NCBI GenBank assembly: GCA_002796135.1
Contig: PCWB01000055.1
Location: forward strand, 22,109-86,108
Reading direction: 5' to 3'
Source: Candidatus Omnitrophica bacterium CG11_big_fil_rev_8_21_14_0_20_41_12
GTDB lineage: Bacteria > Omnitrophota > Gorgyraeia > Gygaellales > Profunditerraquicolaceae
DNA: 64,000 bases
A program made the position numbers and the translations under genes. Shown here piece by piece: positions 2,818-42,338 of this stretch (positions within the stretch are counted from its first letter, which is position 1; the number at the start of each line of letters is the position of its first letter). Below the pieces are notes generated by a model. It saw nothing but the letters and a program-made list of their open reading frames with translations, made no database searches and was not told the origin of the DNA.

Positions 2818-3696
2818 ATGAAAACTGAAGTAAAGAAGTTGGATGGAACAAAATGTGAAATTAATATAGCGGTAGTCGGAGAACAGGTAAAAAATAAATT
2901 TGAGGAGGTTTTTGCACAAATTGCAAAAGAGGCAAAAGTCCCGGGGTTCCGGCCGGGCAAGGCTCCCAGAGATATGTTGGAAAAGCATTATGCAGCAGCT
3001 GTGCATGAACAGGTTATAAAAGAACTGGTTCCGGATGTTTATAATCAGGCGATTGCTTTAGAGAAGCTTGATGTGATTGAATTACCCCAGATAACTGAGG
3101 TCAAGCTTGACCGCAGTAATCTTTCTTTTAAGGCGGTGGTCGAGATAACCCCCGAGATTGCGGTTAAAAATTATAAAGGGATAAAGATAAATTTTAAAAC
3201 AGTTTCAGTTTCTCCCGATGAAGTAAAACGGCAGATTGATTCTATTAAGGAGTCGCGTAAGGCTGAAAGTTTAGATGATAAATTCAGCCGTTCTCTGGGA
3301 TATCCTAACCTTACTGAACTGGAAAAAGCAATAGAGCGTCAGATCTTTATCAGTAAAGAGAATCAGGAGCGCGCGCGTATCGAGAATGGATTGATTGAAG
3401 GGATAACTAGGGGTTTAGAGTTTAAGCTTCCCCAGGGGCTAGTTGACCGTCAGATTCAGGATATGCTCAGACAAACCAAAATTGATTTAGCCATGAAGGG
3501 CCTGCCTCGGGATAAGATTGACGAACAGGAGAAATTACTTTTAGACGGCATTACTCCCGATGCTAAGAAACAGGTTAAGATTTATTTGATCTTATCCCAG
3601 ATAGCTAAAAAAGAGAATATTTCTATTGATGATCATCTGCCGCGCAAGGTCATGGAATTTTTATTAAAAGAAGCAGATTGGCAGTTAGAAAAATAA
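2818..3696 (+). CDS. tig: Trigger factor (N-terminal ribosome-binding plus C-terminal chaperone domain; PPIase domain absent)
   Basis: It has the TF signature GFRPGKAP in its N domain and lies directly upstream of clpP, the conserved tig-clpP order. It is only 292 aa. The sequence passes from the end of the N domain (EVKRQIDSIKESRKAE) straight into C-domain-like sequence without an FKBP-type segment. Confidence 0.7.
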   Translation: MKTEVKKLDGTKCEINIAVVGEQVKNKFEEVFAQIAKEAKVPGFRPGKAPRDMLEKHYAAAVHEQVIKELVPDVYNQAIALEKLDVIELPQITEVKLDRSNLSFKAVVEITPEIAVKNYKGIKINFKTVSVSPDEVKRQIDSIKESRKAESLDDKFSRSLGYPNLTELEKAIERQIFISKENQERARIENGLIEGITRGLEFKLPQGLVDRQIQDMLRQTKIDLAMKGLPRDKIDEQEKLLLDGITPDAKKQVKIYLILSQIAKKENISIDDHLPRKVMEFLLKEADWQLEK

Positions 3697-3704
3697 TGTA
3701 GTTA

Positions 3705-3751
3705 CACACCCCGCGCCTAGAGGAGTTGCGCGGGTGTGCTCTAGGTAGCGC
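3705..3751 (+). promoter_or_regulatory. Pair of overlapping, mutually exclusive inverted repeats in the tig-clpP spacer
   Basis: Hairpin A pairs CACACCCCGCGC (3705-3716) with GCGCGGGTGTG (3728-3738) around an 11-nt loop. Hairpin B pairs GCGCCTAGAG (3713-3722) with CTCTAGG-ta-GCGC (3740-3751). The two share the GCGC segment, so they cannot form together. There is no U-tract after either. Confidence 0.35.
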
Positions 3752-3768
3752 AGGTAACTTCATAAAAA

Positions 3769-4395
3769 ATGGAGGAGGATAAGATGAATACGAAAATGCA
3801 GACATTTGTTCCCATGGTCATTGAGCAGACTCTCCGGGGTTTTGAGCGTGCCTATGATATTTATTCACGACTTCTTAAGGACCGTATTTTGTTTATCGGG
3901 ACTCCGATTGATGATTATGTGGCAAATTTAGTAATTGCGCAGTTGCTTTTTTTACAAATGGAAGATAAGGATAAGGAGATTAGTGTTTATATCAATTCTC
4001 CCGGTGGTTCAGTTACTGCGGGCCTGGCGATTTATGATACGATCCAATTTATAAAATGCGATGTCGCTACTTTCTGTGTAGGCCAGGCGGCCAGTATGGG
4101 TGCGCTTTTATTGTCGGCCGGCACTAAAGGAAAACGTTTTGTGCTTCCTAATTCCCGGGTAATGATCCATCAGCCCTGGGGAGGAGTACAGGGAGCTGCT
4201 GCCGATATCTCGATTCAGGCCAAAGAGATTTTAAAATTACGCGATCGGATCAATGAGATCTTAGTGTTGCACACCGGCCAATCCTTAGAGAAAATACAAA
4301 AGGATACTGACCGGGATTATTTTATGTCCGCCCAGGAATCTAAGGATTATGGTTTGATTGACGAGGTCATCTTACCGGGAACCAAAAAGAAATAA
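3769..4395 (+). CDS. clpP: ATP-dependent Clp protease proteolytic subunit
   Basis: Strong ClpP signature throughout ([50 protein letters not shown]). An RBS GGAGGAGG lies upstream. Confidence 0.9.
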
Positions 4396-4427
4396 ATTAA
4401 ACAATCTATTTTTAGGAGAAAGAAAAA

Positions 4428-5577: not shown

Positions 5578-7164
5578 ATGATTAGAGTTTTAGTCAGTGA
5601 CGTATTGAGTGAAGAGGGGCTTAAAGTATTTAAGGACTCCAAAGAATTAACCGTTGATGTAAAAACAGATCTGAAGCCGGATGCTTTAAAAGAGATCATC
5701 AAGGATTATGATGGTTTGGTTGTGCGCAGCGCAACTAAAGTGACCAAGGAAATTATCCAGGCAGCTAAGAAATTGAAGGTTATCGGACGCGCAGGCGTTG
5801 GCCTGGATAACGTCGATTTAGCAGCAGCCACTCAGCATGGCATTATCGTCATGAATACTCCGTCGGGCAATACTATTTCTACTGCGGAACATACTTTTAG
5901 TATGATTTTGGCGTTGTCTAGAAATATCGCCCAGGCGAATTCCTCAATGAAGAAAGGGGAATGGAAGCGTTCTAAATTTATGGGTGTGGAATTATATAAT
6001 AAAGTTTTAGGTATCGTTGGTTTCGGAAGGATCGGCTCAGAGGTTGCCAAGCGGGCCCAATCATTCGGGATGAAGGTTAGAGCTTTTGATCCTTTTTTGT
6101 CCGCAAAGGTAGCCGAGAGTATTGGTGTTGAGATTGCGGAATTAAAAAAGATTTTAGAGGAATCCGATTATATTACCGTACACACTCCTTTAACCGATGA
6201 AACCAGGCACATGATTTCGGATAAAGAATTCGGTATGATGAAAAAAGGAGTGCGGATCATAAACTGCGCGCGTGGCGGAATCATCGACGAGGCTGCTTTA
6301 GCCAAGGCGGTAGCTGAGGGTAAAGTGATCGGGGCAGCCATGGATGTTTTTGAAAATGAACCGCTTGCCGCAGACAGCCAGCTTTTAAAACTGGATAATG
6401 TGATTACTACTCCGCATTTGGGTGCATCTACCGAAGAAGCACAGGTCAATGTAGCTATTGAGGTTGCTGAAATTGTGCGCGATGCTTTATTAGGAAGAGG
6501 GATCCGTAATGCCGCGAATTACCCCTGCTTAGATGCCGAGGCCTGCAAAATTCTTAATCCGTATATTAGTTTAGGAGAAAAATTAGGGATGTTTGCTGCG
6601 CAATTAGTAGAAGGCAGATTCCAGGAGCTAGTTATAAGTTACAGCGGCCAGATTACGAATTATGATTTAAGCCCGGTGACTATGTCTTTAGTTAAAGGGT
6701 TATTGACCCCGATATTAAAGGAAAGGGTTAATTTTGTTAACGGGATATCTTTACTTAAAGAAAGAGGGATTAAGTTGCTGGAATCAAAATCCGGCCAGGA
6801 AGGTGAATTTGTGAATCTTATTCAGTTAGAGATCAAAACAGATCAAGAAACTAAATCTATCCTGGGGACGCTCTCCGGTAATAAGCAGCCCAGGATTGTT
6901 AAAATTGACGATTATTATCTGGATTTATATCCGGTTGGAGAAATGATCTTTATTCGCAACCTGGATAAATCGGGCTTAATTGGTAACCTGGGAACATTGA
7001 TGGGCAAAAATAACATCAACATTGCTGCGATGGCTTTAGGCCGTAATCAACCCGGCGATAAAGCAATCAGCGTTTGGAGCGTAGATAATCAGGTTACTCC
7101 TGAGATCCAGGAGAAAATTAAAAAATTAGAAAATATTCTAACGGTAAAGGTGATCAGAACTTGA
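5578..7164 (+). CDS. serA: D-3-phosphoglycerate dehydrogenase, long form with ASB and ACT domains
   Basis: NAD-binding motif GIVGFGRIGSEVA and a 2-hydroxyacid dehydrogenase catalytic region. It is 528 aa, with a C-terminal ACT-like regulatory segment. Confidence 0.85.
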   Translation: MIRVLVSDVLSEEGLKVFKDSKELTVDVKTDLKPDALKEIIKDYDGLVVRSATKVTKEIIQAAKKLKVIGRAGVGLDNVDLAAATQHGIIVMNTPSGNTISTAEHTFSMILALSRNIAQANSSMKKGEWKRSKFMGVELYNKVLGIVGFGRIGSEVAKRAQSFGMKVRAFDPFLSAKVAESIGVEIAELKKILEESDYITVHTPLTDETRHMISDKEFGMMKKGVRIINCARGGIIDEAALAKAVAEGKVIGAAMDVFENEPLAADSQLLKLDNVITTPHLGASTEEAQVNVAIEVAEIVRDALLGRGIRNAANYPCLDAEACKILNPYISLGEKLGMFAAQLVEGRFQELVISYSGQITNYDLSPVTMSLVKGLLTPILKERVNFVNGISLLKERGIKLLESKSGQEGEFVNLIQLEIKTDQETKSILGTLSGNKQPRIVKIDDYYLDLYPVGEMIFIRNLDKSGLIGNLGTLMGKNNINIAAMALGRNQPGDKAISVWSVDNQVTPEIQEKIKKLENILTVKVIRT

Positions 7165-38160: not shown

Positions 38161-38520
38161 GTGTCCATGGATAAAATAACTGTTATACTTAACGAAGGCC
38201 CTAACACAATGCGTTCTTGGAATGGTTTGCGTCTGACAGGAGGTTTGTTGGATGTAAATTTACAGGCGGAAGTAGTTTTGTTTGATGAGTCGGTTTTCTG
38301 CGCTAAAAAATCCCAAAATCCACCGGAAGATCTAAAGGGATTGAATCTTAGCCAGAAGTTATCGGAGTTGATCAAGCTGGGAGTTAAAGTTTTGGTCTGC
38401 GGAAGCTGTTGCCAGGCTCGAGGCGTAAAGTCAGAAGAATTGGTTGATGGAGCCCAGATCTGTTGTCTGACGGATGTGGCAAACGCCATAAAGACAAGCA
38501 GGCAAACATTAGTATTTTAA
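38161..38520 (+). CDS. DsrE/DsrF(TusD)-like small protein
   Basis: 119 aa with a YchN/DsrE-fold pattern (ITVILNEGP…) and Cys-containing VCGSCC. Confidence 0.45.
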   Translation: MSMDKITVILNEGPNTMRSWNGLRLTGGLLDVNLQAEVVLFDESVFCAKKSQNPPEDLKGLNLSQKLSELIKLGVKVLVCGSCCQARGVKSEELVDGAQICCLTDVANAIKTSRQTLVF

Positions 38521-38554
38521 AACACCTCGCGCTAATTGGAATTGCGCGAGTGTT
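38521..38554 (+). promoter_or_regulatory. Palindromic hairpin, second copy of the motif seen at 3705-3738
   Basis: AACACCTCGCGC, an 11-nt loop, then GCGCGAGTGTT. It has the same arm architecture, the same single-C bulge and the same loop length as the clpP-upstream hairpin. A C:G to T:A compensatory pair distinguishes the copies. Confidence 0.3.
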
Positions 38555-38576
38555 CCCTTGTGGGAAGGAGGATATA

Positions 38577-39319
38577 ATGCTCAATCTAAATCCTGATGAG
38601 ATTAAGAAACTGGTTAAAGATAAATACAGCAAGGTCGCTTGTGATCCTTATGGGGTGTATAATTTTCCCGTAGGAAAAGCGTTTGCCTTGAAAGTCGGTT
38701 ACCCTCAAGAAGTTTTGGATACGCTTCCTGTTTCTTTGATGGAGTCTTTTACCGGCGCCAATAACCCTCAGCCGTTTGTGGAACTGAAGCCAGGCGAGAT
38801 TGTATTGGATTTAGGTTGCGGCGGCGGCCTGGATTTATATTTTTATAGCCAGGCTGTGGGGCCGCAAGGAAAGGTTTATGGCGTAGATATTTCCGAAGAT
38901 ATGGTGAACCGGGCAAAAGACAATATGCGTAAAACGGAAAGAGCAAATACGGAAATCCGTATCGGAGAATCTGACAGCATCCCTTTTAACGAAGCATTCT
39001 TTGATCTGGTTGCCTCAAACGGTATTTATAACCTATCTCCGGATAAAGAAGCGGCCATGAAAGAGGTGTTTAGGGTTTTAAAACTCGGAGGCCGGACGGT
39101 CTTTTGTGAAATTGTTCTAAAAGAGCCGTTGTCTGAGGATGAAAGGAAAAATCATAGCGATTGGTTTAGGTGTATCGGCGGAGCTTTGGTGGAAAATGAT
39201 TTTATCGATTTAATGAAAAAAGTTGGCTTTGAGAATATAGAAGTTATATCTACCTGCCGTAATGCCCGCACCGGACATCCTTCGGCTATTTGCGCAAATA
39301 TACGCGCCTATAAAAGATA

Positions 39320-39320
<1 letters not shown>
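38577..39320 (+). CDS. ArsM-family SAM-dependent methyltransferase lacking the canonical As(III)-binding cysteines
   Basis: SAM motif I (VLDLGCGGGLD…VGPQGKVYGVD), an ArsM-like N-terminal region (GYPQEV…GANNPQPF), and a C-terminal WFRCIGGAL. The positions equivalent to ArsM Cys72 (…GANNP…) and Cys174 (…SNGIYNL…) are not Cys. The start was set to the ATG at 38577 behind a GGAAGGAGG RBS. Confidence 0.6.
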
Positions 39321-41919: not shown

Positions 41920-41949
41920 GGCCCGTCCTAAATGGTGTAGAGGACGGCC
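41920..41949 (+). terminator. Stem-loop directly after the trmD stop, upstream of rplS
   Basis: GGCCCGTCC, a 13-nt loop, then GGACGGCC. The trailing T-run is weak (TTCCCC). It could be a terminator or an rplS leader structure. Confidence 0.3.
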
Positions 41950-41981
41950 TTCCCCACGAGGGTAAGAAAGGAGTAACAATA

Positions 41982-42338
41982 ATGGATATTAAATCAATCG
42001 AGGCAGGATTTGCCAAGAAAGAGATGCCGGAAATTAACGTCGGAGACACGGTAAAAGTAATGACCAGGATTAAGGAGGGCCCGGATAAATTCCGGTTGCA
42101 TCCTTTTGAGGGAGTGATCATTGCCAAAACCGGCTCAGGTTCTAAAGTTAATTTTACGGTTAAGAAAGTTTCCTTTGGTGAGGGGATTGAGCGTGTATTC
42201 CCGCTTTATTCACCGGTTATCGAGCGCATTGAACTTATCCGCTCAGGTAAAGTCAGGAGAGCCAAGCTTTATTATTTAAGAGGTAAGATCGGCAAGCACG
42301 CTACTAAAATAGAAAGTAAAACAGAAAAACCAAGTTAG
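41982..42338 (+). CDS. rplS: 50S ribosomal protein L19
   Basis: 118 aa with an L19 pattern and the conserved trmD-rplS order. Confidence 0.9.
   Translation: MDIKSIEAGFAKKEMPEINVGDTVKVMTRIKEGPDKFRLHPFEGVIIAKTGSGSKVNFTVKKVSFGEGIERVFPLYSPVIERIELIRSGKVRRAKLYYLRGKIGKHATKIESKTEKPS

Follow-up and report, generated by a model that had tools for sequence, protein, structure and literature searches.

Two palindromic hairpins singled out by a preliminary description of a 64,000-nt stretch of DNA from Candidatus Omnitrophica bacterium CG11_big_fil_rev_8_21_14_0_20_41_12 (contig PCWB01000055.1, positions 22,109 to 86,108 of the forward strand; hereafter the window) are members of a clade-wide Omnitrophota family of two-hairpin cassettes, 46-50 nt in length, in which a hairpin of conserved sequence (H1) is followed by a second hairpin of free sequence (H2). 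In kind the cassette is a small structured bacterial repeat, as are REP (repetitive extragenic palindromic), ERIC and Correia elements; new in comparison with such repeats are its architecture abutting the Shine-Dalgarno sequence, the logic of two hairpins and the conservation across a clade of an uncultivated phylum. The cassette probably acts on the mRNA, and we give about even chances to the reading that we favour, in which dispersed copies are transcribed as part of leaders and stabilise or insulate the cistron downstream.

The hairpin family and its anatomy

Copy 1 (window 3705-3738) reads CACACCCCGCGC-CTAGAGGAGTT-GCGCGGGTGTG and copy 2 (38521-38554) reads AACACCTCGCGC-TAATTGGAATT-GCGCGAGTGTT. 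The arm length, the extra C in the 5' arm, the 11-nt loop and the common loop residues (..A..GGA.TT) reported for the pair were all borne out by both sequences. A compensatory change between the arms had also been reported, and the inner pair is indeed C:G in one copy and T:A in the other; it is not the one difference it was said to be, as two pairs differ, both in a compensatory manner. The second is the outermost pair, C:G in copy 1 and A:T in copy 2, which is not part of the core conserved in the family. The pattern ACACCYCGCGC-N8-14-GCGCGRGTGT matched the window twice, against 0.00 matches expected from 100 dinucleotide-preserving shuffles, and its relaxation to three mismatches yielded nothing in the window beyond the two copies, nor was any other GC-rich hairpin of at least 8 bp found in the 64 kb. 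Folding of the copies against shuffled sequence gave z = -2.8 for copy 1 and z = -3.6 for copy 2. Both are intergenic, in short spacers and on the coding strand, copy 1 between the genes for trigger factor (2818-3696, 292 amino acids) and ClpP, and copy 2 between a DsrE-like gene (38161-38520) and a gene for an S-adenosylmethionine-dependent methyltransferase (38577-39320).

One genome per bacterial species was then scanned for ACACCNCGCGC-N8-14-GCGCGNGTGT, a census that comprised at least 119 loci. A genome-wide search without further copies would have left the pair as a coincidence; instead, more than 70 copies were found in at least 42 Omnitrophota assemblies. At least 73 matches lay in assemblies of 35-54% GC, all labelled Candidatus Omnitrophota or Omnitrophica except four metagenome-assembled genomes (MAGs) labelled 'Planctomycetales'. 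One of the latter (L069, 'uncultured Planctomycetales', CAYIFW01) has the same sequence as L130 4270-4420, a metagenome locus of Omnitrophota type, throughout the stretch compared (30-nt flank, cassette and first 120 codons), and the four labels are probably mis-assignments. A further 47 of the matches listed, in high-GC genomes, are chance; they had GC-rich loops of any length, and the pair left free in the pattern was complementary in only 10 of the 47. By contrast, this pair was complementary in 74 of 74 strict copies (71 C:G, three T:A, no mismatch), a set that includes the two window copies and has loops of 10-12 nt. The assemblies carrying the cassette represent at least 42 species-level units, Candidatus Velamenicoccus archaeovorus LiM among them, with several copies each. 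A covariance model recovered about 35 additional copies with altered yet paired stems which the search pattern could not reach; in total it gave at least 119 hits in 640 kb of Omnitrophota DNA, corresponding to about one site per 17-21 kb. All copies were intergenic or at the extreme 3' end of an open reading frame (ORF).

Among 80 metagenome loci retrieved via the trigger-factor protein, model hits were confined to those with a trigger factor at least 75% identical to that of the window (about 11 sites in about 197 kb, against none in about 180 kb of more distant loci), and the family is therefore clade-restricted. Viral contigs gave zero matches to the pattern, which leaves a phage origin unsupported. 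Rfam 15 returned nothing for the window at gathering thresholds; at E-values up to 10 only spurious eukaryotic families appeared for the surroundings of copy 1 and none for those of copy 2. The literature searches that we made on Omnitrophota genomes, repeats, RNA motifs and the discovery of intergenic elements did not bring up a description of the element, so the family is apparently undescribed so far.

The single hairpin of the preliminary description corresponds to H1; neither H2 nor its constant juxtaposition with the Shine-Dalgarno sequence had been noticed. H1 consists of ACACCCCGCGC, a loop of 11-12 nt and GCGCGGGTGT, with the second C of the CC step bulged, and the consensus of the 11-nt loop is T-W-A-T-N-G-G-W-A-T-T. 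Among the 59 loops of this length, G7 is invariant (59/59) and A3 (57/59), T10 (56/59) and T11 (55/59) are nearly so. H2 begins directly after H1, with which it shares the last T; its stem measures 5-6 bp and its loop either 4 nt (NNNT) or 5 nt (NNNCT). The H2 stems, of which no fewer than 22 sequence variants were seen, are all fully complementary; H1 is constrained in sequence as well as structure, H2 solely in structure. AA closes the 3' arm of H2 and passes directly into GGAG, giving an AAGGAG Shine-Dalgarno sequence, which most copies have. Counting from H1, 45 of the 74 strict copies (about 60%) have the start codon of a real ORF, with a Shine-Dalgarno sequence before it, at a distance of 18-31 nt; this count is ORF-aware, as a regular expression takes the first start codon and undercounts.

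In one H2 sub-class, nnnGC-TTTCT-GCnnn, the loop has 5 nt with CT as its last two residues; no Shine-Dalgarno sequence comes after it, and its members are often antisense to their neighbours. They were observed at the 3' ends of genes or upstream of promoters of the sigma-70 type (L034, L045, L050, L060, L073, L081, L093, L096, L101, L109, L116, L125 and L126).

Covariation, strand and genic position

The change from C:G to T:A between the window copies had been proposed to be covariation reflecting selection on the hairpin. This proved correct, the pair being C:G in 105 and U:A in 12 copies of the family. Over the 119 hits, in an alignment fitted to the model, 98.3% of 1701 cells were paired, 14 of 15 pairs were changed on both sides, and 277 double-change cells were observed against 72.8 +/- 9.5 in shuffles; with partner columns slid as a control, pairing was only 27-64%. 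H2 alone was 98.7% paired. A single H2 position was CG in 49, GC in 48, AU in nine and UA in four cases, and because such varied pair types occur at one position, the H2 covariation is independent of the fitted alignment. H1 stems altered on both sides were likewise recovered with the model (CCTGGCGC/GCGCCAGG, CCCGGCGC/GCGCCGGG, CCCCGCAC/GTGCGGGG and CGCCGAGC/GCTCGG). Compensation was also seen in place at orthologous sites of different species, namely UCCC/GGGA versus GCCC/GGGC at gdhA, C:G to U:A in H1 together with G:C to A:U in H2 at a class-V aminotransferase gene, and one compensatory change in H1 with two in H2 at an adenosine kinase gene.

G.U pairs outnumbered A.C pairs by 36 to 13 overall and by 11 to 0 in H2, and the model scored 45-82 bits on the strand of the element against 15-21 bits on the reverse. 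As the reverse strand scores lower and G.U exceeds A.C, the selected structure lies on the strand named in the preliminary description. The compensatory changes (model-fitted as the alignment is), the strand specificity and the fixed position relative to genes are those generically expected of a cis-acting structured RNA.

The same data bear on the earlier suggestion of an operator, that is a dyad-symmetric DNA site for a dimeric transcription factor common to clpP and the methyltransferase operon. The arms do form a near-perfect palindrome in which the change between the window copies is symmetrical, and the heat-shock genes clpP, groES and dnaK are among the downstream genes. Nevertheless, an operator is very improbable, given the strand asymmetry (bulged C, asymmetric loop, unequal scores), the free covariation of the adjacent hairpin, the location between stop codon and Shine-Dalgarno sequence within operons and not at promoters, the unrelated functions of the downstream genes and the absence of the element before clpP in most relatives; on these grounds the suggestion is unsupported. 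CIRCE, the operator of HrcA, resembles the cassette as an inverted repeat with a spacer of 9-11 nt, found in chaperone leaders and conserved in many species. However, its sequence (TTAGCACTC-N9-GAGTGCTAA) is another one, the cassette also precedes many genes unrelated to heat shock, and the groES leader of L084 has a genuine CIRCE adjoining the element. The order there is a perfect TTGACA-16-TATAAT promoter, CIRCE, the element and the Shine-Dalgarno sequence; since promoter and CIRCE lie upstream, the element is within the 5' untranslated region of groES. A promoter function was rejected, as canonical sigma-70 promoters (L084, L045, L093, L011) lie upstream or downstream of the element and never inside it.

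Among the 119 hits, 68 shared the strand of both flanking genes and 13 were opposite to both. GC skew tracks gene orientation, so that replication and transcription as causes of the orientation are inseparable on skew. One reversed element (L096, 2025-2222) was observed about 30 nt downstream of a thiamine pyrophosphate riboswitch aptamer (RF00059, 55.6 bits) and before the regulated gene.

On the upstream side, the stop codon of the preceding gene was within 10 nt of H1, or inside H1 or its loop, in 30 of 56 copies. In about ten strict copies the upstream ORF runs through the 5' arm of H1 and stops at the TAA of the loop, which gives the protein a ...T-P-R tail; the element thus supplies the stop codon, for example in L028, L042, L052, L087 and L128 (distance -14 or -17), as expected if an insertion adjoined a Shine-Dalgarno sequence lying inside the upstream gene.

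Downstream, Pfam identified ribosomal proteins (L19, S6, S11 and L31, with genes including rplS, rpsF, rpsK and rpmE), chaperones and proteases (Hsp70 (dnaK), Cpn10 (groES), ClpP, Skp, a SurA-like peptidyl-prolyl isomerase and an FtsH-like AAA protein), proteins of metabolism and replication (SSB, ACP (acpP), NDK, GDH, SHMT, KARI, PII, PurB, PurN, PPDK and DnaN), envelope and transport proteins (ExbB, ExbD, PilO, secretin, an RND pump and LolA-like proteins) and, among others, superoxide reductase. Many of these gene products rank among the most abundant proteins of model bacteria, and junctions such as trmD-rplS and the fabG type are well-known steps up in expression, from low to high, as in the Escherichia coli rpsP-rimM-trmD-rplS operon.

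A stable, GC-rich hairpin right after a stop codon might also be an intrinsic terminator or attenuator of the upstream gene, and the NNNCT sub-class at gene 3' ends ahead of sigma-70-type promoters (L045, L093) would fit this. We hold such a role to be most unlikely. In either orientation H1 and H2 lack a following U tract, H1 being succeeded by H2 and this by AAGGAG or mixed sequence, and assignment to the intrinsic terminators was rejected accordingly. In addition, most copies leave no room for a new promoter before a start codon 18-31 nt away, and rplS, rpsK, acpP and other genes of abundant products would be silenced by termination there.

The G-rich loop close to a Shine-Dalgarno sequence raises the question of a CsrA/Rsm-type protein that regulates translation globally and would bridge GG(A/U) in the loop of H1 and, about 30 nt further on, the GGA of the Shine-Dalgarno sequence; the regulon would then comprise more than 100 leaders, with tandem arrays serving as decoys. 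CsrA/RsmA leaders and the TwoAYGGAY motif indeed share with the cassette a loop GG(A) upstream of a Shine-Dalgarno sequence that holds a second GGA, as well as multi-hairpin arrays. In the cassette, G7 of the loop is invariant, the second GGA (in AAGGAG) stands at a fixed distance, arrays of 3-5 units occur in the leaders L041, L048, L043 and L158, and conservation of the stem and bulge points to a specific partner protein. However, CsrA needs GGA, and among the 74 strict copies only 42 loops (57%) contain it, with GGU in 20 and neither in 12, so that 43% are without GGA. The long GC stem and bulge that the cassette conserves are not required by CsrA sites, the element is optional at a given gene in close relatives, which would be odd for a regulon, and no match to the CsrB/Rsm or TwoAYGGAY models of Rfam was obtained at E = 10. 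Overall, a CsrA-type site appears unlikely.

Gain and loss of the cassette and its proposed function

At the tig-clpP junction, most of the relatives with a 75-85% identical trigger factor have a bare TAA-N5-GGAGG-N6-ATG before clpP. An element is present there in the species of the window, in L130 (with an extra mini-palindrome within the 3' arm), in L138 (nested), in L140 and L142 (a truncated H1 plus H2) and in L141. Conversely, the junction between clpP and an aminotransferase gene is empty in the window and filled in L130, L135, L154, L158 and L166. Comparison of the window (4396-4427) with L130 gave one clean pair of empty and filled sites, in which a 46-nt unit stands exactly in front of AGGAGA without any duplication. 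NAAG is frequent as the 5' flank and also forms the end of H2, which could be taken for a target-site duplication; this was rejected, as N is mismatched within copies and the clean site pair shows none. Tandem arrays of two to five units are common, whole units are nested in the loop of H1 after AAG, and wherever units are in tandem (13 of 13 arrays) the one closest to the start codon scored highest. Sub-families of H1 and H2 occur along with degenerate copies. The cassette is thus a dispersed repeat that is gained, duplicated, nested and lost at individual junctions, and which spreads by duplication, as follows from the empty sites in close relatives and the tandem and nested copies.

The tig-clpP junction is a hotspot for several kinds of inserted repeats. 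In other lineages its spacer holds unrelated, long AT-rich inverted repeats (AAACTCGAAAC... / ...GTTTAGGATTTAG), observed after the trigger-factor gene in L145, L147, L148, L158, L160, L176 and L179. The mini-palindrome mentioned above, CCTGCCTGCC-N2-4-GGCAGGCAGG, was detected inside the 3' arm of H1 in L130 (3640-3660) and L125 (2154-2173), and on its own in L083, L093, L133, L146, L148, L170 and L197; it looks like another small mobile hairpin.

Such behaviour could reflect selfish, non-autonomous mobile DNA (REP, miniature inverted-repeat transposable element (MITE) or IS200/IS605-type) inserting as a folded single strand immediately 5' of the (A)GGAG of ribosome-binding sites, the hairpins being kept for the insertion machinery and effects on expression being incidental. 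We regard this explanation, the main rival of the one that we favour, as possible, if doubtful. It accounts for the presence/absence polymorphism at the same junctions in close relatives, for the position of the 46-nt unit directly in front of AGGAGA and for the adjacency of the best-preserved, and possibly youngest, array unit to the Shine-Dalgarno sequence. The nested units, the copies that break the 3' end of an upstream ORF and supply its stop codon, the sub-families with their degenerate members, the reversed minority in which the conserved sequence is kept and the density of sites are also consistent with it. Against it stands H2, free in sequence yet almost completely paired and compensated in situ at orthologous sites, which is hard to reconcile with neutral passengers; H2 also has 11 G.U against 0 A.C pairs. 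REP families are usually species-specific, whereas a single H1 sequence is kept across at least 42 species of 35-54% GC. Furthermore, no target-site duplication, no terminal inverted repeats beyond H1 and no linked transposase were found, and the only transposase family detected in these genomes (Y1/RayT) is flanked by other repeats.

Like the REP, BIME and REPIN elements of Proteobacteria, the copies are short, imperfect, bulged palindromes, extragenic but presumably transcribed, often after stop codons or between cistrons and in tens to hundreds per genome. Unlike these, cassettes are mostly single sense units, or direct tandem or nested ones, and not inverted pairs, and they have a sequence-free second hairpin, a fixed Shine-Dalgarno junction and a sequence common to at least 42 species. 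REP elements are mRNA stabilisers and affect translation of the upstream gene when located within about 15 nt of its stop codon. ERIC/IRU (Enterobacteria), Correia (Neisseria), SMAG (Stenotrophomonas) and bcr1 (Bacillus cereus group) are small, structured and dispersed as well, transcribed as intergenic insertions and with filled and empty sites among relatives; repeats of this type can create RNase sites or stabilising hairpins. They are 100-170 nt long, however, and the cassette differs from them in its shorter unit, its strong orientation bias, its precise position at the ribosome-binding site and the lack of a target-site duplication or a related autonomous insertion sequence. MITEs are defined by terminal inverted repeats, a target-site duplication and a related autonomous insertion sequence; the one clean site pair showed no duplication and no related autonomous element was found in about 1 Mb, and assignment to the MITEs was rejected on this basis. 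IS200/IS605-type elements, mobilised by a Y1 TnpA, have sub-terminal hairpins and insert strand-specifically, with no duplication, beside a fixed target of 4-5 nt. The absence of a duplication, the fixed (A)GGAG junction and the orientation bias match them; the mutually unrelated H1 and H2, the variability of H2 and the lack of a linked TnpA at the few RayT loci inspected do not. An integron attC site was rejected. Such sites have the core sequences RYYYAAC/GTTRRRY, measure 57-141 nt and mark the 3' end of each promoterless cassette in arrays beside intI, whereas the present element has 46-50 nt, no R''/R' core sites and housekeeping flanks (tig, clpP, trmD, rplS, acpP).

A separate, classic REP-RAYT system was observed in Omnitrophota. 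A tblastn search with RAYT and IS200 query sequences led to a gene for a 163-residue RayT-like Y1_Tnp protein (L020, 5570-6290; PF01797, E 8e-17) that occurs in several genomic contexts, and the family is widespread in the phylum. The RayT genes are flanked by the inverted repeats AGACCGTTTCTA and GGGGACAGTTCT, and the GGGGACRGTTCT repeat forms REPIN-like +/- pairs 30-50 nt apart elsewhere. Loci of this system are L210-L215, L011 (163-238 and 6248-6303), L047, L061, L063, L076, L078, L087 and L101. None of five Y1_Tnp loci had an H1/H2 hit within 3 kb (best 12 bits), a small number that makes a second, undetected transposase possible. The cassette as the cognate REP of RayT was rejected, as the RayT loci carry other terminal repeats and no H1/H2. 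Giant genes adjoin RayT loci, with called products of 11,364 and 45,701 residues (L212 1-2375, L214 5373-6492); giant genes have been reported for Omnitrophota.

Two sets of features point in different directions. Arrays, nested and decayed copies, and the coming and going of units at single junctions are what a proliferating repeat shows. The constant H1 sequence in at least 42 species, the H2 that is free yet paired with compensation in place, the tolerance of G.U on one strand, the sense orientation and the fixed junction with the ribosome-binding site are the signature of a functional RNA. It is this signature, set against that of a proliferating repeat, from which we favour the dispersed leader cassette. 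Two of the roles named in the preliminary description agree with the evidence, a small REP-like repeat and an element of RNA-level processing or stability, and the cassette may combine them.

The cassette would be a portable leader or intercistronic module working on the transcript. We infer that the element is transcribed, that it influences stability or translation and that a factor binds H1. As a stable hairpin read by a putative lineage-specific factor, H1 would stop RNases, or set the point at which they act, where the element meets the upstream cistron, and H2 would keep the adjacent ribosome-binding site single-stranded, possibly stacked, regardless of the sequence upstream. The downstream cistron would then reach a higher and more independent level of expression than the one upstream. 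A stable hairpin before a strong Shine-Dalgarno sequence is also found in the ompA 5' stem-loop, the Bacillus subtilis aprE leader, the cggR-gapA processing site and the cryIIIA STAB-SD, all of them known 5' stabilisers or processing hairpins between cistrons. In these cases an abundant downstream product is expressed far above its upstream partner, and the same function may be proposed for the cassette; they are single and locus-specific, whereas the cassette is portable and reused at about 100 junctions per genome.

Several points weigh against this reading. The Shine-Dalgarno junction, the gradient within arrays and the sense bias can be explained equally well by a site-specific insertion neutral to the host, and about 11% of hits are antisense to both neighbours. 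The element is dispensable at a given junction, as the bare clpP spacer of most relatives shows, and the window lacks the copy that L130 has before its aminotransferase gene. The NNNCT sub-class resides at gene 3' ends without a Shine-Dalgarno sequence. Finally, high expression was judged via homologues in model bacteria, the covariation counts are somewhat inflated by the fitting of the alignment to the model, and the strict copies were chosen by a pattern that fixes the H1 stem.

In its most far-reaching form the reading would describe a portable 'expression cassette' of about 50 nt, with a factor-read H1 and an insulating H2, that is copied exactly to the 5' edge of Shine-Dalgarno sequences, and we put this forward only tentatively. 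It would amount to a post-transcriptional regulon, or boost, of about 100 abundant genes that evolves by copy-and-paste. An insertion mechanism targeting the Shine-Dalgarno sequence would be new by itself, as would the reading of a conserved leader hairpin by a protein on a global scale. The Omnitrophota, an uncultivated phylum, are ultra-small bacteria that may be predators or depend on a host, and to our knowledge nothing is known of how they control gene expression; a cassette at about 100 ribosome-binding sites per genome would, if confirmed, be a first handle on their post-transcriptional control. As a compact natural part made of hairpin and ribosome-binding site it is a candidate operon insulator, and it offers a clean system for the copying of small structured repeats without an evident transposase. 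The covariance model marks Omnitrophota DNA in metagenomes, where it exposed at least one 'Planctomycetales'-labelled MAG with a sequence identical to an Omnitrophota locus, and also flags gene starts.

The window copies and neighbouring features

H1 of copy 1 (3706-3737, + strand) comprises ACACCCCGCGC, the loop CTAGAGGAGTT and GCGCGGGTGT, forming a 10-bp stem with the bulged C, and scored 57.2 bits (E 9e-13) with covariance model R1 and 57.6 bits with R2; the span 3705-3738 first described is this hairpin plus one flanking C:G pair. As had been stated, copy 1 adjoins clpP on its 5' side. It is atypical in having a weak H2 (3738-3750, + strand; GCU-CUAGGU-AGC(G), then CAGG) and in that clpP has its own Shine-Dalgarno sequence 20 nt further downstream, and an outer helix of AGUUAC (3700-3705) with GUAACU (3754-3759) is possible. 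The Shine-Dalgarno sequence and start of clpP occupy 3771-3786 (+ strand), with GGAGGAGG at 3771-3778 and ATG at 3784-3786; the ORF extends over 3784-4395, and public gene calls give a form of 203 amino acids.

Copy 2 is canonical. Its H1 (38522-38553, + strand) comprises ACACCTCGCGC, the loop TAATTGGAATT and GCGCGAGTGT and carries the T:A variant of the covarying pair, with 65.6 bits (E 6.5e-15) in R1 and 67.7 bits in R2. H2 (38553-38566, + strand; UUCCC-UUGU-GGGAA) shares the last U of H1 and is abutted by the GGAGG (38567-38571) of the methyltransferase gene, whose ATG (38577-38579) follows after 5 nt; Shine-Dalgarno sequence and start together span 38567-38579 (+ strand).

A candidate third, degenerate copy lies at 41920-41962 (+ strand) between the genes for tRNA_m1G_MT (trmD) and Ribosomal_L19 (rplS). 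Its H1-like part consists of GGCC(C)GUCC with a bulged C, the loop UAAAUGGUGUA(GA), beginning with UAAAUGG, and GGACGGCC; the H2-like part, CCC-CACGA-GGG, is followed by AAGAAAGGAG and an ATG at 41982. With 16.7 bits (E 0.024) in R1, only 12.5 bits (E 0.31) in R2 and a folding z of only -0.9 it is not significant alone, and its architecture and context fit the family. Weak hits at 6703, 20105 and 63217 were dismissed, being inside ORFs.

The trigger factor encoded upstream of copy 1 (2818-3696) is short and has the Trigger_N and Trigger_C domains and no FKBP-type peptidyl-prolyl isomerase domain. More than 2000 homologues were found, and the best 120 have 285-306 amino acids and the same two domains. 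All long ORFs of the window (1-64000) are on the + strand with very short spacers, an unusually long co-directional gene run, and its GC skew is +0.1 to +0.2 throughout.

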